From assembly GCA_964583985.1 (NCBI GenBank), contig CAZOYD010000083.1:1-13702 (forward strand): DNA of 13,702 nucleotides. The letters run 5' to 3'. The stretch is from an uncultured archaeon (GTDB lineage Archaea > Asgardarchaeota > Lokiarchaeia > Sigyniarchaeales > SOKP01). Positions 1,649-13,637 of the stretch are shown here, piece by piece. Below the pieces are notes generated by a model. The model had not been told where the DNA came from, made no database searches, and saw nothing but the letters and a program-made list of their open reading frames with translations. A program made the translations under genes and the position numbers. Each line of letters begins with the position of its first letter. Within the stretch, counting starts at the first letter, position 1.

Positions 1649-2066
1649 GATTCAATTTTTATAGATTTATTGATCTTACACTATATTAAAATAAGAACCA
1701 ATTTAATATTTCTGTGCAATTTTGTACATCAAAGTCGTAAATCTTACATAATCATAAATACGATTTTGCTTTGTAGTAAATTCATATTATAAGTAAGCTA
1801 ACTGTCTAAGAAGCTGAATCATATAAATTAAAAAAAATTCATTTTTATTTCTACAAGAATTGCGATAAAGAATGATGTTCATTTAAAATAATCTAATTAA
1901 TTCATGAAACATCACTATGAGATTAAGCATATATTTTGAACTTGACTCATGATAATAGGAAGGACAGATTTAAAGTAAATTTTTTTTTATTAGGATGGGG
2001 GCTACTACAGAGATGGAGTTATATTGAAAGAAAAACTAATTCCTTTAGTAATAACTATTGAGAATA

Positions 2067-2080
2067 GGAAAAGTTTATAG
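2067..2080 (+). promoter_or_regulatory. BRE/TATA promoter of the candidate C/D RNA
   Basis: GGAAAAGTTTATAG: a purine-rich BRE-like stretch followed by TTTATA (2074-2079), ~25 nt upstream of the predicted RNA 5' end (~2104). Confidence 0.6.
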
Positions 2081-2104
2081 GTTTAAGAACAATTTTAACT
2101 AGTA

Positions 2105-2192
2105 GCCGATGATGAAAAGGCATTTGGGTGAGAACTCGACATGGATATCACGTGTGCAAAATTCAATGATATGGAGTTATACTTTCTGAGGC
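2105..2192 (+). ncRNA. Box C/D 2'-O-methylation guide sRNA (snoRNA-like), predicted to target LSU rRNA H69-H71
   Basis: Terminal stem GCC(2105-2107)/GGC(2190-2192); perfect box C ATGATGA (2109-2115); D' candidate GTGA (2128-2131); degenerate C' ATGATAT (2166-2172); perfect box D CTGA (2186-2189). The guide AAGGCATTTGG (2117-2127) is antisense to CCAAAUGCCUU of LSU rRNA. Upstream TATA and downstream TTTTATTT (2195-2202). Confidence 0.8.
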
Positions 2193-2368
2193 GATTTTAT
2201 TTATGGAAAGGGTTTTCAATAATTTGATAATTCAGATATTTCACGATTGAATGCATCAAATGAGGAAGTAGCAAAATATTACTGTGATTATATCTTCAAT
2301 TCTTTCAATCCAGCTAATCGTTAATGGGATCATAATATTAATAAAGTTAGAATAATTCATTGATCACC

Positions 2369-4706: not shown

Positions 4707-6089
4707 ATGAATAATGAAAAGCATTCAACAGGTAAAATGGTTTCGTTTACATCTGTAATATTTGGCACTACAATCGTAACAAACGTCATGACAGCGAGAT
4801 TTACAGCCTTTTATGAGACTGAAATATTATTACCTATAAATCTAATGGTTTTAGCCATAATTGTATATACAATATGGGATATGATTAATGATCCCATTTT
4901 CGGACATCTTACTGATCGAAAGTATCGATTGACTAGGAGGTGGGGAAAACGATTTCCTTGGTTAATGTGTGCTTCTTTTCCAGTTATCATTATTTTAATT
5001 TTGTTTTTTATGCCTCCAGATCCGAGCGTGAGTGGCGTATGGCTTACATTGGTATGGTTTTTAATATTTTTGATGTTATTTGATGGGTGCATGACCATCA
5101 TAGGAGTATCATATCTTGCATCTCTTATCAATAAGTTTCGATCCGATGAAGAACGTTTAAAAGTTTCTTCCTACCAGCAATTATTATCCACTTTAGGATT
5201 AATGCTTGCATTCTTTATTCCCCCTTTGGTTGTTCAATATGGAAATAAGTCTTCTTATATTATGTTGGCTTTAATTTGTGGAGTGATATTTTTAATTACA
5301 ATTCTAGTAAGCATTCCTGGTCAGAGAGAATCTAAGGAAGAAATTGATAAATACTATGTAACCGAAGAGGAGCAAGAACCATTTCTTAAGAGCTTCATTG
5401 GAATGTTTAAAATAAGTTTAAAACAAAAAAATTTCCGAGCCCTTCTCGTTATTACTATCACTCTCGCTTTGTTTAATTTGCTATTTATTGCTTCTATTCC
5501 ATATTATGTTCGCTATGTCCTCCAAGCAAGTGCCACCACTGAGCTTTTATTATATCTTCCTTATTTATTAGCTGCGTTCATTCCAATTCCGTTGTACTTT
5601 TGGATGTCCAAGAAGTATGGCCACTTGAAGATGTACATAATTACTTTATTTCTCAAAGCAATTGTTCTATTTCTCATGATAATTTTTTATACGAACTTTT
5701 TGATCATACTTGTTCTTGTGGCAATAATGGGAGTTTCAGTAGGAATAAGTAATATTGCTGGAACACCTGTAGGAGGAGATTTTTACGACGAGGCCGCAGT
5801 ATTTAATAAGAAACGTTATGAAGGAATATATATGGGTATCCAAACATTTCTGAGTCGAACCATGTACATCTTTCAGTTGGTGGTATTTTGGATAATCCAC
5901 TCACTAACAGGTTTCATTGCTGAAGCATCAACCCAGACTCAAGCAGCGCAATTTGGCATAATAATTCACATGATGATCATACCTGCGATTGCCAGTTTAA
6001 TTGGGGTACTCTATTTCTGGAAAACATGGGATTTGAAACCAGAAAAGGTACAAACAATCAAAAATCAACTCAAAGAACTAAAAATTTAA
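4707..6089 (+). CDS. MFS transporter, glycoside-pentoside-hexuronide (GPH/MelB-like) cation symporter
   Basis: 460 aa, ~12 TM. Signature IWDMINDPIFGHLTDR...RWGKRFPW, plus ER motif in the cytoplasmic loop and DE...RYEGIY. Confidence 0.92.
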   Translation: MNNEKHSTGKMVSFTSVIFGTTIVTNVMTARFTAFYETEILLPINLMVLAIIVYTIWDMINDPIFGHLTDRKYRLTRRWGKRFPWLMCASFPVIIILILFFMPPDPSVSGVWLTLVWFLIFLMLFDGCMTIIGVSYLASLINKFRSDEERLKVSSYQQLLSTLGLMLAFFIPPLVVQYGNKSSYIMLALICGVIFLITILVSIPGQRESKEEIDKYYVTEEEQEPFLKSFIGMFKISLKQKNFRALLVITITLALFNLLFIASIPYYVRYVLQASATTELLLYLPYLLAAFIPIPLYFWMSKKYGHLKMYIITLFLKAIVLFLMIIFYTNFLIILVLVAIMGVSVGISNIAGTPVGGDFYDEAAVFNKKRYEGIYMGIQTFLSRTMYIFQLVVFWIIHSLTGFIAEASTQTQAAQFGIIIHMMIIPAIASLIGVLYFWKTWDLKPEKVQTIKNQLKELKI

Positions 6090-6102
6090 TTTTTTTTATT
6101 TT
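6090..6102 (+). terminator. Oligo-T terminator after the MFS gene
   Basis: TTTTTTTTATTTT immediately after the TAA stop. Confidence 0.6.
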
Positions 6103-6228
6103 TAATTATGTAATGCGAAATTAGAATAAATTGAATTTAAAAATAATTAAAATCAGGATATATAATAAGAGAAATTTCAAATAAAAGATAATGAATTTAG
6201 ATGTTAGATAATAAAATGAGATGATCTA

Positions 6229-6591
6229 ATGGAAGCGATATTCTCTATTTTGCGGGCAAAATTAAAAGAAAATATTCAAATTGAATTTGATGATAGAAAT
6301 AATACTGTTTACCTATGGGTAAAATCAAAACAATTTACGGATGCAATAATCGCGACGCCTAACGAAGTGAAAGTAATGCTTATAATATTTGGTGGACTAA
6401 ACGAAAATACATCTTTGACAATTGAAGTTAATAATTCTTCGAAAATAATTAAATTAATTTCTGATAATAAGGATGAATACACTTTTTTAAAAGGAATTAT
6501 GGAAAATTTATGGGATCAAACAATAGATCTCTTAGAACAAGTGGATGTTGGAAATTTTTCAGAGTTCCTGAAAATAAAATTTGAAGATTAA
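6229..6591 (+). CDS. Hypothetical protein (120 aa, soluble)
   Basis: Clean ATG-TAA ORF co-oriented with the cluster, protein-like alpha/beta pattern; no recognised motif. Confidence 0.7.
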   Translation: MEAIFSILRAKLKENIQIEFDDRNNTVYLWVKSKQFTDAIIATPNEVKVMLIIFGGLNENTSLTIEVNNSSKIIKLISDNKDEYTFLKGIMENLWDQTIDLLEQVDVGNFSEFLKIKFED

Positions 6592-6651
6592 AAGTATTAC
6601 AAAATTCCAAGATAATAAAAAATTAGAGCACTATGAGGAGAATCTTAAGAG

Positions 6652-8490
6652 ATGGATGAAAAATTGGATGACAGGATTAATCCATTTATGGAAATTGCAA
6701 AAGAGCCAATTAAGAGGATAAAAAATTCATATGAACGGATAATATACGATGAGTATGTCACGATGCGAGATGGAGTTAAGCTAGCAGTAACTGTTTCTCT
6801 ACCAAACCTGGATGGTAAAAATAATAAATTTCCCACTTTTCTTTCTCAGACAAGGTATTGGAGGGCCATGAAATTACGCTTACCGTTCAGATGGTTGATC
6901 GATGAATTACCGTTAGCAACTGTTGTTAATGTCATGTTCAATTCTCATGGATATGCAACAGTCTCCGTTGATGTACGAGGAACGGGAGCTTCCTTTGGAA
7001 GCAGGAATTTTCCATTTACCAAGGAAGAAGTACAGGATGGTAATGAACTTCTAAATTGGATAACCGCTCAACCTTGGTCGAATGGAATGGTAACTTCTAG
7101 TGGAGGATCATATTTAGGAACCGCTGCGGAATACTTAGCAACCCACAACAATCCCTCTCTAAAAGCAATTGTACTTGGTCATTGTTCATGGGATGCATTT
7201 TTAGATGGTGCAGCTCCTGGAGGTTGTTATAATCACACATTTATGCAAATGTGGTCACTTTCTGGAAAGTTACAAGATCAAAATAATCCTAAAATGTTCA
7301 AGCAAAACTTACCAATGTTTTGGTTAATGTCTGAAGGGGTTAAACCGGTTTATTCTGAATTAAATCCGAATCTCTTGCAAGAAGCAATTGATCAACATGC
7401 TAATAATCAATATGTATATGAATTAACAAGGGATCTTAACTTTCGGGATGATGAGCTCCCAGATGGAAACCATGTAGATTATATTAGTACTTTTTACCAT
7501 AAAAAAGAGATAGAATCTTCAAAAGTTCCAATATTAAGTTGGGCTTCATGGCTTGATTCTGGTTATGGAGATGTTGTAATTTATAGATTTCTAAACTTAA
7601 ATAATCCTCAAATAGGAATAATTGGGGATTGGAATCATGGTGCAACGCTTCCTTCAAATCAGTTTTTCCCTGAAAGAAAAGTGGTCAATCCAACACTTGA
7701 TCGATTGCTAAAAACTTGGATTCACTTTTTCGAAAGTTGCATAAACAACAACCAATCTCATGAAAAATTACTTTACTATTATACGATGGGAGAAGAAAAA
7801 TGGAAAAAGACAGATATCTGGCCACCACTTCGACATGAATATTCGAGATGGTATTTCTCAAGCAAAAATGCTCTGATAAATACTCCACCAAAAGAAGATG
7901 TTGGATCTGATCAATACAAAGTAGACTTTTTCGCAAGTACGGGAAGAAATAATCGTTGGTGGGCATTATTAGGATATCAAGTATTATATGGAAATAGAGC
8001 AGAAAGAGATTCAAAATTATTAACATATACGAGCATGCCATTTAAAACAGATATTGAGATTACTGGTAATCCCATAATTTCCGTCAATCTTAGCACAACC
8101 CACCAAGATGGTGTTATTTATGGGTATTTAGAAGATATTAATCAAGAAGGGGTCGTAACTTACATCACGGATGGACATATTAGATTCATTCATAGAAAAA
8201 TTTCAGATGAACCATCGTTATATAAAGCTCTGATTCCATATCATTCTTATAAAAAGAATGACGCATTAGAAGTAATTCCAAATGAAATAATGGAAATTAA
8301 ATTTGGCTTGCATACCACATCTGCTGTTATCAAGAAGGGCCATAGGATGAGAATAGCATTAGCAGGTCATGATCGGGAGACATTTAAAAAATATCCCAGT
8401 TCCGGAAAACCGATTTTATCCATCTATCGAAATAATGCGAATCCTTCATATATTGATATCCCGATTATAGCAAAGAAAGACTCAAATTAA
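6652..8490 (+). CDS. CocE/NonD-family serine hydrolase (S15 peptidase-like alpha/beta hydrolase with PepX_C-type domain)
   Basis: MRDGVKLA; TRY oxyanion motif; DVRGTGASFG; QPWSNG; nucleophile GGSYLG; WLD (Asp); GDWNHG (His); C-terminal KKGHRMRIAL. GAGGAG upstream. Confidence 0.92.
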   Translation: MDEKLDDRINPFMEIAKEPIKRIKNSYERIIYDEYVTMRDGVKLAVTVSLPNLDGKNNKFPTFLSQTRYWRAMKLRLPFRWLIDELPLATVVNVMFNSHGYATVSVDVRGTGASFGSRNFPFTKEEVQDGNELLNWITAQPWSNGMVTSSGGSYLGTAAEYLATHNNPSLKAIVLGHCSWDAFLDGAAPGGCYNHTFMQMWSLSGKLQDQNNPKMFKQNLPMFWLMSEGVKPVYSELNPNLLQEAIDQHANNQYVYELTRDLNFRDDELPDGNHVDYISTFYHKKEIESSKVPILSWASWLDSGYGDVVIYRFLNLNNPQIGIIGDWNHGATLPSNQFFPERKVVNPTLDRLLKTWIHFFESCINNNQSHEKLLYYYTMGEEKWKKTDIWPPLRHEYSRWYFSSKNALINTPPKEDVGSDQYKVDFFASTGRNNRWWALLGYQVLYGNRAERDSKLLTYTSMPFKTDIEITGNPIISVNLSTTHQDGVIYGYLEDINQEGVVTYITDGHIRFIHRKISDEPSLYKALIPYHSYKKNDALEVIPNEIMEIKFGLHTTSAVIKKGHRMRIALAGHDRETFKKYPSSGKPILSIYRNNANPSYIDIPIIAKKDSN

Positions 8491-8533
8491 AAAATTAATG
8501 AATCGCAAGAACGAGAAATTTAGGATCAAGTAG

Positions 8534-11353
8534 ATGAAGGCTAATCAGATAGTTCTTGTTTCCGAAACTCATTGGGATAGGGAATGGTATCTCCCCTTTC
8601 AAGAGTATCGGGTGCAATTAATTAAATTAATGGACGAGGTTATTAAAATTCTTGACCAAAATCCAAAATACAAAAATTTCACATTAGATGGACAGGCTAT
8701 TTTAATCGAAGATTATCTGGAAATAAAACCAGATGAGGAATCTAACCTTAGAAAGCTGATTCAAAAAAGTAGGATATCAGTTGGACCAATGTATATAATA
8801 CCCGATGAATTTTTAGTTAGTGGGGAAAGTTTAATTCGAAATTTAATGATAGGTCATAAAATAGCGAAAAAATTTGGTAGAGTTATGAAAGCAGGATATG
8901 TTTCTGATCCTTTCGGGCATATCGCTCAACTCCCCCAAATTTTCCAAGGGTTCGAGATTTCCGCAATATTATTTTGGAGAGGTCTCGGTAACCAACTCTC
9001 AGAAAAAGAGTTAGACCTCGAATTTTCTTGGAATTCTCCAGGAAACGCAGCTTCAGTTATAGCCAGCTTTATGAAATTAAGTTATGGTTCAGTCGCGAAT
9101 TTAAGTATAAAAAAAACAAAAGGATTCTATACTAAAGCGCTTCAGAAGTTAAATTGGGCAATTTCAAAACTTGAAAGTTTCACTGCAACACCTATTCTAT
9201 TACTAAACAGTGGTACTGATCACTCTTTTGCAAATCCAGAGCTCCCTGAGATAATTGAACAATGGAATGAATTAAATCCTAATAAACGCATGGAAATGGG
9301 TGATTTCGAAGATTATATCAATAAGGTAAAAACATACAAACCTAATTTAAAAAGTTATGAAGGTGAACTAAGAGGAAGTAAATATATTCATATTCTATCG
9401 GGTGTATTATCTTCTAGAATGTGGATAAAGCAGCTTAATTCTCACGTCGAACATCTTTATGAGAAATACATTGAACCATTATTGACTATTGCTTGGGTAT
9501 TAAATAAACATCGAAATGTTAAATACCCTTCAGACCTCCTCCTAAATGGGTATAAATGGTTATTAAAAAATCACCCACATGATTCTATATGCGGATGTTC
9601 CATAGATCCCGTATATGAAGAGATGAAAATTCGATATAGTTGGGCAGAACAAATTGGTTTAGAACTATTAAAGAATTCACTGTTATCCTTGGATGAGTTA
9701 GTTAATCTTCAAATGGATAATGCTGATCGCATCCATTTAGTGATATATAATCCACTTGCTTGGAAAAGAAGAGATATCGTTAAATTTAATATCCTCAGTG
9801 AAATGAAGAGAGTAGGCATAAAAGCCACTAAATTTTTCCGTTTATTTGATTGCAATGATAAGGAAGTTGATTATTACCTCAATGAAGTCAATGAAATTGC
9901 AAGATTCCGCCATATAAATTCTAAAAGTTATAGATGTTCATTTCTTGGGGAAGTACCTGCATGTGGATTTAGCATTTATTATTTAAAATCAACAACGGTA
10001 CGGTCCATACCGGATCAACAATCTAATAAAATTTATTCATCAAATAATAAGATTGAAAATCAATACTATAAGATTACAGCAACAAATGATGGGAAAATTG
10101 ATCTATTTGATAAAGAGAGCCAATTATGGTATAAAAATGTTCTTAGTATCGAGGATATTGGGGATTGGGGTGATCTTTATGACTTTTCAGGTCCAAGTAA
10201 AGAACAATACGATAAAGTATTTTCAACTGAAAATATACATCCTCTAAACATATCAAGACAAATAAGTGGTTTGATATGTGAATCATTGTTAATAGAATAT
10301 GACCTTAGATTACCTATCTCATTAAGTACTGACCGTAAAAAAAGGGAAGAAAGATTAATATCAAATTTAACTTCAATTCGTATAACATTATATGACTCTA
10401 TTAAACGAATAGATATCAGTGTGAATGTAAAAAATAAGAGTAAAGATCATAAACTACGAATTTTGTTTCTCACATCTATTAATGCTCAAGAGATTAGAAG
10501 TGATGGGCACTTTCATATAATTTCTCGTCCAATTGAGATTCCAAATGTAAAAGATTGGAATCAGAAACCAACAGCGAATAGCTATAATGAACATTTTGTA
10601 GCGGTTAGTGATAAGGCTAGAACTTTTGCCATTTTAAATAAAGGGCTTCCAGAATATGAAGCAATTAAAAATGATGATGACACCGTTAGTCTAGGTATAA
10701 CATTGTTACGTTGTGTTGAATGGTTATCGCGGTCTGATTTGAGTTCGCGAGACACAAATGCGGGACCGGATTTAAATACACCAGCTGCTCAATGCATAGG
10801 CTCTCATCTTTTTGAATTATCAATAATCATTGAAAATAACAACCAAGGATTAGAAGATGTACATTGCTATGGTCAAGAATTTAACAACCCACTTATGGCT
10901 TTCTGTCCTGCGATGATAAAGACCAATTTGGGGGCTTTCGACAGAGTGATTTTAGCACCACTGGGTCTTTTATATCCCTACCGTCTTAAAAAACATGTTG
11001 AGAGGAAAGCGCTGTTACCAACCCAATTTTCATTCCTTTCCATTGATAATAAATGCACTCCTTTGAGTATCCTAAAAAAGGCTGAAGAAAGTGATGATAT
11101 GATCATAAGGGTGTATAATCTTTCTGCACAAATTCAATTCTCAAAAATATCTTTTTTTAAGGATTTGCAGATAATTTCTGTGAAAATCGTTAATTTTCTT
11201 GAAGAGCCTCCAACAAATGACATAAAAGCTAAAATTACAAGAATCGCTAATAATAATTTTTCCCTCTCACTTGATCCACATGTTATTGCTACTATAAAAA
11301 TAAGTTTCCAGTGTAAACTGGAAAAGAATGCAATATCCAATCTCATTGAATGA
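8534..11353 (+). CDS. Glycoside hydrolase family 38 alpha-mannosidase (MngB/alpha-mannosylglycerate hydrolase-like, cytoplasmic)
   Basis: THWDREWY (Zn ligands), FTLDGQ, DEFLVSGESLIRN, nucleophile DPFGH, GTDH, HPHDSICGCS, and C-terminal NKGLPEYE / ITLLR / LKKAE motifs. Confidence 0.93.
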   Translation: MKANQIVLVSETHWDREWYLPFQEYRVQLIKLMDEVIKILDQNPKYKNFTLDGQAILIEDYLEIKPDEESNLRKLIQKSRISVGPMYIIPDEFLVSGESLIRNLMIGHKIAKKFGRVMKAGYVSDPFGHIAQLPQIFQGFEISAILFWRGLGNQLSEKELDLEFSWNSPGNAASVIASFMKLSYGSVANLSIKKTKGFYTKALQKLNWAISKLESFTATPILLLNSGTDHSFANPELPEIIEQWNELNPNKRMEMGDFEDYINKVKTYKPNLKSYEGELRGSKYIHILSGVLSSRMWIKQLNSHVEHLYEKYIEPLLTIAWVLNKHRNVKYPSDLLLNGYKWLLKNHPHDSICGCSIDPVYEEMKIRYSWAEQIGLELLKNSLLSLDELVNLQMDNADRIHLVIYNPLAWKRRDIVKFNILSEMKRVGIKATKFFRLFDCNDKEVDYYLNEVNEIARFRHINSKSYRCSFLGEVPACGFSIYYLKSTTVRSIPDQQSNKIYSSNNKIENQYYKITATNDGKIDLFDKESQLWYKNVLSIEDIGDWGDLYDFSGPSKEQYDKVFSTENIHPLNISRQISGLICESLLIEYDLRLPISLSTDRKKREERLISNLTSIRITLYDSIKRIDISVNVKNKSKDHKLRILFLTSINAQEIRSDGHFHIISRPIEIPNVKDWNQKPTANSYNEHFVAVSDKARTFAILNKGLPEYEAIKNDDDTVSLGITLLRCVEWLSRSDLSSRDTNAGPDLNTPAAQCIGSHLFELSIIIENNNQGLEDVHCYGQEFNNPLMAFCPAMIKTNLGAFDRVILAPLGLLYPYRLKKHVERKALLPTQFSFLSIDNKCTPLSILKKAEESDDMIIRVYNLSAQIQFSKISFFKDLQIISVKIVNFLEEPPTNDIKAKITRIANNNFSLSLDPHVIATIKISFQCKLEKNAISNLIE

Positions 11354-12468
11354 TTATGACAGGATTGATAGAAGAGATTTTATCTCAAGGAAAAGCACTA
11401 GACGCATGTTTTAGCTTTCTTTCAAAGAATCAGATTGAATCACTAAAGAGTCTAAGAAATTATTTTGAGAGCCATCATATTACAAAATTGATTTTTACTG
11501 GTATGGGTTCAAGTTTTTTTAGCACGTATATTCCATTTTATATGCTAAGGCACGCTGGTTTTGATGTTGAACGAATGGAAACAGGAGAATTTCTCCTTCA
11601 TGGATTCCCTCAAAAGAAAATGGAAATTTTTAACAATGTTGCCATTATTTTAGTTTCTCAGTCAGGTGAAAGTGGAGAAATGGTCGAATTAATTAAATTA
11701 ATCCAATCCTTAAAAATACAACCATTAACTATAGGTATCACTAATAATTCACTTAGCTTTTTGGCAACGCATACAGATATACAATTGTTTTTAAATGTTG
11801 GAATTGAGGAATCTGTAACCTCCAAAACTTATGTGTGTTCTATTTTAGTGTTGTATGTGGTTGCTCGTTCTTTAATCACCAATTTTTTTGAATCTGTGAA
11901 TGAAGTGAAAATGATAAAATCTTCAATAACAAATGTAGAGAAAGTCCTTAGTGATAATACAAATCTTAGTGGCGTGTTAGATAGAATCGAAAAAAATTTT
12001 GGAAACGACTATCAATTTCTTCAGATTCTTGCAAGAGGCACATCCATGGCAACCGCAGATCAAGGAGCCCTAAACTTTAAAGAAATAGTTAAAATTAGTT
12101 CAGAAGCGCTAACAGTTTCAGCTTTTAGACATGGTGGAATAGAATCTCTTAATGACAAGACCAAGCTAATACTCATAGCTTCAAATCTCATAGATCACGA
12201 TCTAAACATTCAATTCATCCAACAACTCATTTCAAAATGGAAATTTGGAAATTTATTATATCTTACTAACCAAGAATTGAGTTCAGATGATAAAATTTTA
12301 TTAAAAAATCCAAAAATAATTCTTTATCAACATAACATTGAAAATCCGTTCTTAGCTCCGCTTCTAGAAATTATAATTCTCCAATTAATGTGTTACAAAA
12401 CAGCTCTAAAGAGAGGAATTACTCCAGGAGTGTTCAATTTTTCCTCAAAAATCACTAAAGGGTTATAA
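11350..12468 (+). CDS. Double-SIS-domain sugar-phosphate isomerase/deaminase (GlmS C-terminal / AgaS / FrlB-like), no glutaminase domain
   Basis: TGMGSS, SQSGES, ITNN, TSKTY, GALNFKE, FRHGG, C-terminal SKIT. ATGA overlap with the GH38 stop. Confidence 0.9.
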   Translation: MIMTGLIEEILSQGKALDACFSFLSKNQIESLKSLRNYFESHHITKLIFTGMGSSFFSTYIPFYMLRHAGFDVERMETGEFLLHGFPQKKMEIFNNVAIILVSQSGESGEMVELIKLIQSLKIQPLTIGITNNSLSFLATHTDIQLFLNVGIEESVTSKTYVCSILVLYVVARSLITNFFESVNEVKMIKSSITNVEKVLSDNTNLSGVLDRIEKNFGNDYQFLQILARGTSMATADQGALNFKEIVKISSEALTVSAFRHGGIESLNDKTKLILIASNLIDHDLNIQFIQQLISKWKFGNLLYLTNQELSSDDKILLKNPKIILYQHNIENPFLAPLLEIIILQLMCYKTALKRGITPGVFNFSSKITKGL

Positions 12469-12510
12469 AGAAACAAGATTTTATATAAAAAAGGACATCT
12501 TGTCATATAA

Positions 12511-13293
12511 TTACTTCCAATTATTCCCTTTTTTCCAATATTGTTCAAAAAACTCAGTTGTCCATTCAATAAAGGATTCATTATTATCCAATAAGCATTG
12601 ATTATAATCAATTTCCCCCTCTTTATCTAAAAATAGCATTGCTCCTTTATCAGTGATTAACAATGAAAATTCCAGTGTTTTATCGTAAATTTTTACGGAT
12701 TTCAACAGATCTGCTTTCTTGAAAAACTCTAACTGCTCCTTTTGATTTAAAGATTCATTTCCTGAATTTTGACTGGATTTTAACATAGAATTGTCAACTA
12801 GGATGCGAATATCCATTGATTTATCCTGTATCTTTTTTTCGAACACGGGGATTATTGAATTCTGGACTTGATCCATGGTGATATATATAACTTTTTCAGC
12901 ATTTTTAATTAGATCTCCCCATAATTCAAGGTTTTGAATTGTTTTCATACCGATTTCAATTGTTTTTAAATTTCCTAATTGCATTATAAGTTCCAGAGGA
13001 ATCATGGCTATTGAATGGGTGTTAAAAAATTCTCTTAACTTAATTGAAACTTCAAAAATATCTAATATTTGGTAAAAGATCATACCTAAATTTGTGATGG
13101 AATATTGATGATTGAGAGATTTTCGGATAAGATGGCTATCATTTAACCGCTTAAGATGGCGAGAAATTTCAGATCCCGGTAAATTAAGTTCTTGTTCAAG
13201 ATCACCATGCTTTTTCTTTTCATTGAATAATGCCTTGAATACGCGTAATCGTTCCTCGTTAGAAAGTTCAAATAAAATTTGATTAATTATCAT
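12511..13293 (-). CDS. Archaeal ArsR-like winged-helix transcriptional regulator with C-terminal DUF1724/TrmB-like effector domain
   Basis: LFELSNEERLRVF...EISRHLKRL...YSITNLG wHTH; FFNTH..IP linker; C-terminal LLITDK...W..EFFEQYWK. ATG 13293 is preferred over TTG 13305. Confidence 0.85.
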   Translation of the reverse strand: MIINQILFELSNEERLRVFKALFNEKKKHGDLEQELNLPGSEISRHLKRLNDSHLIRKSLNHQYSITNLGMIFYQILDIFEVSIKLREFFNTHSIAMIPLELIMQLGNLKTIEIGMKTIQNLELWGDLIKNAEKVIYITMDQVQNSIIPVFEKKIQDKSMDIRILVDNSMLKSSQNSGNESLNQKEQLEFFKKADLLKSVKIYDKTLEFSLLITDKGAMLFLDKEGEIDYNQCLLDNNESFIEWTTEFFEQYWKKGNNWK

Positions 13294-13637
13294 TTTTGTT
13301 CCCAAATATCTTTAATTATTAGACTCTTGAATATGATAAAAATGATTTGAAGATTAATATTAAATTGAGTTATATAATCTTATTTAAATCATTTAAATCA
13401 AGTTAATCTAAGATTTAATAAGGAATGGATTGATTTAAGATTTTCTCTCGATATTAGATTATTATGCAAAGAATATCTTAAAATTCTGCTAACTTAAGTT
13501 TAATAATTTAAGAGTTATATCCTAAAATTCGGATTAAATAAAAATCAGCTCTACCCGTATTTAAGAGAACTGGATTTATCGGATTGTCACTATATTCATT
13601 GATGTAAGAGTTTACATTATTTATATTCATGTAATCC

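Follow-up and report, generated by a model that had tools for sequence, protein, structure and literature searches.

The window, by which we mean the whole 13,702-nt stretch of DNA that was analyzed, contains an 88-nt candidate box C/D RNA at positions 2105-2192 on the + strand, identified by inspection of the sequence. The RNA is intergenic. It lies in a gap of ~700 nt, with a gene for a beta-helix (NosD-like) protein on one side (- strand, ORF start at 1648) and a gene for a hydrophobic, probably membrane, protein on the other (+ strand, ORF start at 2360/2369). No open frame longer than 31 codons was found across 2105-2192. The host genome is 3.8 Mb with 31.7% GC and an archaeal 16S, and the host belongs to the Lokiarchaeia; the first-pass annotation of this DNA had reasoned for the case of an Asgard host, which is indeed the case. 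Farther along the window, a cluster at 4707-13305 encodes an MFS sugar transporter (4707-6089), a peptidase S15 hydrolase (6652-8490), a GH38 alpha-mannosidase (8534-11353), a SIS-domain protein (11350-12468) and an ArsR/FilR1-type regulator (12511-13305, - strand). This cluster probably serves the use of glycans or glycopeptides and has no relation to the C/D RNA.

The features of the RNA and its immediate surroundings are as follows.

2066..2081, + strand: BRE-like purine run (2066-2073) and TATA box TTTATA (2074-2079), seen in the sequence; near-invariant in 10 aligned homologues
2105..2107, + strand: 5' strand of the terminal stem, GCC, pairing with 2190-2192; 97% of alignment cells paired in 13 homologues
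2109..2115, + strand: box C, ATGATGA, perfect consensus; invariant in 13 homologues
2116..2127, + strand: 12-nt spacer holding the D' guide; invariant except for the last base in 13 homologues
2117-2127, + strand: 11-nt guide AAGGCATTTGG, pairing 11/11 with 23S 1934-1944
2128..2131, + strand: box D', GTGA, one mismatch to CTGA; invariant in family f1 homologues
2132..2164, + strand: internal stem-loop between D' and C', with an outer stem (2132-2137 with 2159-2164) and a short inner hairpin
2166..2172, + strand: box C', ATGATAT, two mismatches to RTGATGA; invariant in 13 homologues
2173..2185, + strand: D guide, or accessory pairing element; core GAGTTATA invariant in 13 homologues
2186..2189, + strand: box D, CTGA, perfect consensus; kept in 12/13 homologues
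2190..2192, + strand: 3' strand of the terminal stem, GGC; pairing kept in homologues
2195..2204, + strand: T-rich tail, a possible archaeal terminator; T-rich in homologues

We found that the locus has the sequence properties of an archaeal box C/D sRNA: a C/D k-turn with a terminal stem, internal D' and C' boxes, and a guide of 11 nt that is complementary to congener 23S, with a Watson-Crick pair at N+5. Boxes C and D have k-turn geometry with a 3-nt bulge, and C' is placed where it could form a k-turn with D'. The first-pass annotation had proposed a stand-alone box C/D guide RNA here; its boxes, stem, guide and D' are all where it put them and are conserved in 13 homologues, whereas the C' box and the second guide, directed at helix 69, had been overlooked. 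The terminal stem shows one C-G to U-G change among the 13 homologues, with the stem and the C/D G-C pair retained. In other Lokiarchaeia, D' reads CTGA, ATGA, TTGA or TGGA. The outer stem of the internal stem-loop is partly mismatched in the host genome, and 87% of alignment cells are paired across the homologues; three sequences from genus g22 share one compensatory A-U to G-C change that is probably a single event. These data lend modest support to a structured element ahead of C'. At 88 nt (83-89 nt in homologues) the RNA is longer than the 50-70 nt that is typical, but not a strict property, of archaeal box C/D sRNAs (PMC7994747).

The element at 2066..2081 is the probable dedicated promoter of the RNA. 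TTTATA lies 26 nt ahead of 2105, in agreement with the spacing of ~25 nt given at first pass, and over the 50 nt that precede box C the identity is 76-100% in 8 homologues (genus g22 included) in which the flanking genes differ. A scan for sigma-70 promoters gave only background levels; that consensus is bacterial and the host is an archaeon. Two genera of the host's family, together with metagenomes, supplied the 13 homologues. Promoter, boxes and the cores of both guides are retained, whereas the loop is variable and different genes lie alongside. Promoter and RNA move together as a cassette, which supports the description of the RNA as stand-alone. The T-rich tail noted earlier is present, although as evidence for a terminator it is weak in a genome of 31.7% GC, and sequence conservation stops ~25 nt past the terminal stem. 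We also observed that a block of ~130 nt upstream of the RNA (window 1975-2104) is kept in several relatives even though the upstream genes differ. This exceeds what a core promoter needs; the block may contain a divergent promoter or have a regulatory role. The D-guide core recurs at window 2015-2023, but this second copy lacks conservation and was dismissed as chance.

The 23S gene of the host was sought by motif, with Rfam and with blastn, and is absent from the assembly, so the pairing of the guides was examined on the 23S of congeners. In five genomes of the same genus (G020, G009, G016, G008 and G007), every base of the D' guide (11/11) has a Watson-Crick partner in the 23S; of these, G007 carries both the RNA and the matching target. 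The predicted energy at 1934-1944 is -16.8 kcal/mol, compared to -12.7 for the next-best site in rRNA, and only 5/2000 shuffles of the guide had a perfect 11-bp site in the rRNAs. The 23S of one bin, G015, was left out of the pairing checks as bacterial: this bin has a bacterial 16S-tRNA-23S operon (L021, L111; contig C263) beside an archaeal 16S, which is contamination. The target lies between helices 69 and 71. By the D'+5 rule, nt 2123 is opposite the third A of CCAAAUG, which is E. coli A1938 (rrlH numbering); the same base had been named at first pass and is borne out by the 23S of the congeners. E. coli has a bacterial variant in this region, also as anticipated. In one genome of the same order (G029) the 23S reads CCAUAUGCC, with U in place of A1937; the sole pattern match there lacks C/D architecture.

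We found that A1938 corresponds to a known methylation site of eukaryotes. An offset of 343 to yeast 25S fits 9/9 published modified bases (2256 to 2288, including Am2281; PMC5699541) on the Loki sequence, and other offsets fit at most 4. The D'+5 base is thus yeast A2281. In Table 1 of PMC3511168 the snR13 site is equated with human Am3764 (U15a) and plant Am2271, and SNORD15A is supported as the guide for human A3764 (PMC5389715). The equivalence of A1938, yeast Am2281 and the human SNORD15 site, given in the first-pass annotation, is therefore correct.

Motifs this short can arise by chance. A scan of single genomes for boxes C and D, a stem and at least 10 nt of guide gave 1 match in the host and 0, 1 and 2 matches in three Markov-random genomes. 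The motif in one genome alone does not exceed chance, and the case rests on conservation. A survey of other Asgard genomes, which had been proposed as a check, gave a clear answer. A strict box-guide-box pattern was found in 9/399 Asgard genomes, and a looser pattern in the A1938 register in 72/399, from ~20 families; the reversed control gave 0 for each. A minority of the 72 are chance matches without C/D architecture (for example in G022, G024, G029, G165 and G339). A pattern shifted by one base, to A1937, was at chance level (4/188 near-complete genomes and 4 in controls), compared to 33 matches in the A1938 register among the same 188 genomes. A pattern with the guide at the D position, searched in the host's class, gave chance matches only.

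The distribution is patchy. In the host's family the guide was found in 8/134 genomes, one of them a chance match, and it is rare in several large Asgard families; in four other families it was found in 9/14, 16/19, 8/12 and 4/4 genomes. This spread reflects loss, or variants outside the search patterns. Promethearchaeum syntrophicum MK-D1 (G037) has an 87-nt RNA of the same layout (C1:2567288-2567374, - strand; equal to L148:79-165, - strand), with a D guide that pairs over 7 nt with 1920-1926, and its own 23S (L019) contains the A1938 target. A scan of all GTDB species found the guide between C and D boxes in Ignisphaera, Aeropyrum, Thermocladium and Vulcanisaeta, in two Bathyarchaeia, in one related Thermoproteota bin and in Baldrarchaeia; bacterial matches lacked C/D architecture. 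Six of the loci recovered (L038-L041, L052 and L059; Baldrarchaeia, Ignisphaera and Aeropyrum) are compact double-guide RNAs with the layout of Sac-sR125 and IHOsR109, and those of Baldrarchaeia sit between divergent genes whose N-termini resemble purA and pyrG. A 2.4-kb contig in a bin labelled Bathyarchaeota (L072:128-216, - strand) carries the Loki RNA and its upstream region nearly unchanged, unlike the true Bathyarchaeia guides; this contig is probably misbinned.

These results bear on the notion that the locus is a fortuitous array of short motifs in AT-rich intergenic DNA that gives rise to no RNA. The 0-2 loose matches per random genome would fit this notion, as would the folding of the isolated RNA, which is no better than that of shuffles (an unremarkable z of +0.85), and the outcome of another proposed check: comparison to Rfam C/D models gave no family at cut-off. 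However, boxes, guide and promoter are kept as a cassette in 13 homologues with changing neighbors, the A1938 pattern is present in 72/399 genomes compared to 0/399 in the reversed control, and crenarchaeal sRNAs that are expressed have the identical guide. We consider a chance array extremely improbable.

The active guide in our proposal adjoins a degenerate C'/D' pair, and this is a counterpoint to it. With D' reading GUGA and C' reading AUGAUAU, these boxes might be inactive, and a real RNA might then do no more than assist the folding of helices 69-71 as a chaperone; or they might shift the register, so that a neighbor of A1938 is methylated. There is precedent for both. Non-consensus D' boxes move or double the target in yeast (PMC5389607), and for Pyrobaculum sR33 guide contacts in helices 68-69 have been described as non-methylating (PMC6009581). 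Several observations argue otherwise. Many Asgard families and the crenarchaea share one spacer length, 12 nt, and one register, whether the guide is at D or at D', and several of these RNAs have consensus CUGA. The adjacent register is not above chance, and the shift seen with snR13 needs a C directly before D', where the RNAs here have G or A. We therefore regard a chaperone-only or shifted-register function as quite improbable, and favor methylation of A1938 itself.

A second stretch of the RNA, ahead of box D, can pair with helix 69. Nucleotides 2174-2181 form 8/8 pairs with nt 1915-1922, followed by a G-U pair at 1923; two more A-U pairs lie past a mismatch at C1914. Across the 13 homologues, C1914 is faced by C or T but in no case by G. 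This guide has a spacer of 12 or 13 nt, the longer form being found in 3/13 homologues, and the spacer length slips the D+5 position between U1915 (13 nt, as in the host) and A1916 (the commoner 12 nt). The 12-nt form has 10/12 Watson-Crick pairs, one G-U and one mismatch on helix 69, the best ungapped count in rRNA. Pairing ends ~12 nt upstream of the main target. Shuffled guides equalled the helix 69 pairing within 50 nt of A1938 in 27/5000 cases (p ~0.005), whereas 13% reached 10/12 pairs somewhere in rRNA, and helix 69 is not the best site by energy. A site in 16S near 1217-1225 has -13 kcal/mol, wobble-rich, compared to -9 for helix 69, and a site near 2775-2786 in the 23S of G020 also has lower energy; these alternatives are wobble-rich or broken at N+5. 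No convincing site for the D guide was found among 22 tRNA predictions.

In other lineages, too, the partner guide pairs in or beside helix 69, but the register differs: G1906 for the RNAs of Sulfolobus and Ignicoccus, A1913 for family f19 and the Bathyarchaeia, and ~1917-1923 for P. syntrophicum and others, with other Lokiarchaeia at about 1917, 1920 and 1921. (We had also considered A1919 as the target of the Bathyarchaeia partner guide; their own rRNA gives A1913, which rules this out.) Pairing with helix 69 thus seems to be conserved more than any single methyl site. Such a pattern agrees with the view that archaeal double guides act as chaperones (PMC4644070; for sR33, PMC6009581), and we liken it to yeast snoRNAs, whose additional base pairs are, in the case of snR13, required for Am2281 (PMC3116282, PMC5389607). 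Judged from these alignments, the second guide is probably an accessory anchor on helix 69.

Alternatively, the RNA could be a conventional double guide, with the D guide also methylating helix 69 at D+5 (U1915 or A1916); this would be compatible with its action on A1938. The D guide does adjoin the perfect C/D motif, the 12-nt form falls inside the criteria of Dennis et al. (2015), which allow one mismatch and two G-U pairs, and U2181, equal to U1915 by that paper's offset, is among the predicted targets in its supplement (PMC4644070). On the other hand, the register varies among close relatives, as 3/13 have the longer spacer, and still other registers are used elsewhere in the Lokiarchaeia. 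The mismatch, which no homologue repairs with a pairing G, falls between the target and the box, 1-2 nt away from the target. Methylation by the second guide, at U1915 in the host or at A1916 in the 12-nt variants, is on balance doubtful, although it is the most plausible of the alternatives, and we retain the anchor as the preferred role for this guide.

The 23S of G007 has a large insertion in the same region. At L026:1455-2689, 1235 nt are inserted after E. coli A1927, between the two guide targets of the RNA, and the ends of the insertion can form a bulge-helix-bulge motif. An ORF within it (L026:1556-2665, 370 aa) has two LAGLIDADG-like motifs by eye; a Pfam search with the 370-aa product gave no match. 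The insertion is probably a lokiarchaeal rRNA intron encoding a homing endonuclease. Its position, 1927, is presumably a known crenarchaeal intron site; a literature search on intron site 1927 found no report. A 14-nt stretch of the ORF (L026 near 1830, + strand) matches, base for base and in the same orientation, the end of the D guide plus box D; this is coding sequence and probably a coincidence. We considered and rejected a tie between the RNA and the 23S intron, as G027, G034 and G037 have the guide and a 23S that is uninterrupted there.

The host encodes the proteins with which such an RNA would act. L7Ae, Nop5 and fibrillarin assemble on RNAs of the box C/D class. Genes for fibrillarin (PF01269, E 2e-80) and Nop5 (PF01798, E 1e-59) are adjacent on contig C1 of the host, and an L7Ae-family gene is on C6 (PF01248, E 4e-22). 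Elsewhere in the host genome, we observed a second C/D-like RNA with an 8-bp terminal stem on C15 (- strand, near 7012), and ARAGORN called a tRNA-Sec with a UCA anticodon at C27:19492-19584.

Based on these results we suggest the following mechanism. The RNA, of ~88 nt, would be transcribed from its own TATA promoter. L7Ae would bind at two places, the terminal C/D k-turn and, internally, the degenerate C'/D' motif, and Nop5 and fibrillarin would join next. The D' guide would then bind pre-23S rRNA at 1934-1944, and fibrillarin would add a 2'-O-methyl group to A1938. Meanwhile the second guide would hold the loop and 3' strand of helix 69 (1915-1923), mainly as an anchor that keeps the region open. 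We put the probability of this reading at roughly 85%.

The site itself is not peculiar to Asgard archaea. Judging from where the guides are found, A1938 appears to be a site of TACK archaea, Asgard archaea and eukaryotes. The RNA described here is a further member of a known guide class, and guides for the same base have already been published for Sulfolobus and Ignicoccus. The suggestion made at first pass, of a site and guide shared across the archaea-eukaryote transition, holds in that the base is the same; it is not a new link between Asgard archaea and eukaryotes, since crenarchaeal guides were published in 2015. Likewise, the guide is shared over the 10-11 nt that the target dictates, but the Rfam models of snR13 and SNORD15 miss the locus. 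We think it fairly likely, somewhat better than even, that the methylation site was inherited across the archaea-eukaryote line. A lineage of the snoRNA gene itself, from archaea to eukaryotes and including the Loki RNA, is unlikely in our estimation; if true, it would add what Hoeppner and Poole (2012) could establish for no family (PMC3511168). At 10-12 nt, a guide holds no phylogenetic information beyond what its target imposes. Since its sequence is set by the target, and since guides move between D and D', orthology of the RNAs is indistinguishable from convergence; guide swapping and convergence have been documented by Dennis et al. (PMC4644070), and Hoeppner and Poole found that common sites are no proof of common RNA ancestry (PMC3511168). 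The A1938 site is not among the eukaryote-ancestral sites with archaeal counterparts in the passages of their paper that were consulted (PMC3511168), and to that extent it is a modest addition to their list.

A literature search, which lay outside most subscription journals, found no paper on Asgard C/D RNAs or on an Asgard rRNA methylation map. The analysis annotates an RNA that Rfam misses, and carries a site of yeast, plants and humans, predicted in two crenarchaea, across many Asgard families. Three things that it adds are of use: a survey across Asgard genomes that includes a register control, an interpretation of the second guide as an accessory anchor, and the counterpart in a cultured archaeon. 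P. syntrophicum has an RNA of the same layout and its own copy of the target, so the prediction is testable in a cultured Asgard archaeon. What is known of the mechanism and origin of C/D RNAs is unaltered by this RNA.

RNA-seq has detected the closest known RNAs, the box C/D sRNAs sR125 of S. acidocaldarius and sR109 of I. hospitalis (Dennis et al. 2015; Additional file 1 of PMC4644070). Their predicted target is alignment position A2204, which is E. coli A1938 by the paper's correspondence of 2178 to 1912, and the same paper names helices 68-71 a methylation hotspot (PMC4644070). They have a guide made of AAGGCATTTG and one further base, in the same D+5 register, and a partner guide in helix 69, theirs at G2172 (about E. 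coli G1906). The arrangement is different. In sR125 and sR109 the A1938 guide is at box D, the partner is on the 5' strand of helix 69, and these compact RNAs (about 57-65 nt) have a D'-C' loop of 3 nt. In the Loki RNA the A1938 guide is at D', the partner pairs, with a mismatch, with the loop and 3' strand of helix 69 (1915-1923), and a 34-nt stem-loop parts D' from the degenerate C'.

We also compared the RNA to its eukaryotic counterparts. Rfam scans of the window, of a 141-nt region and of seven homologous loci gave nothing above cut-off, and the weak matches covered boxes only. The locus was not among the matches when the snR13 model was run on the host genome at E<=10, with 150 of 2438 candidates scored, nor among those of the SNORD15 model on the host genome; a focused scan of the locus with both models gave no match. 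Thus what the RNA would have in common with the snR13/SNORD15 clan is the target, and the Rfam models found no similarity past boxes and guide. Yeast snR13 (RF01223, clan CL00045) resembles the Loki RNA in its target, 25S Am2281 (PMC5699541), in using a guide at a non-consensus D' box and in having accessory pairing with rRNA (PMC3116282, PMC5389607). It differs in that it also methylates Am2280, has overlapping D' boxes and an accessory pairing that overlaps the guide target, and has a model of 124 nt. Human SNORD15/U15 and Arabidopsis U15 (RF00067, clan CL00045) act on the same base (human Am3764, plant Am2271; Table 1 of PMC3511168, and PMC5389715), and SNORD15A is a double guide for neighboring sites; however, the human guide for A3764 is at box D, the D' guide is directed to G3771 (equal to G1945; PMC5027482), and the model is 146 nt. 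The placement of the guide therefore differs even between yeast (D') and human (D). Pyrobaculum sR33 (Lui et al. 2018, PMC6009581) has other targets, and its mismatch is at N+5, whereas that of the Loki RNA is at N+3 or N+4. It is a double guide on helices 68-69; one of its guides retains a conserved mismatch, which recalls the Loki RNA, and is considered to pair there without methylation.
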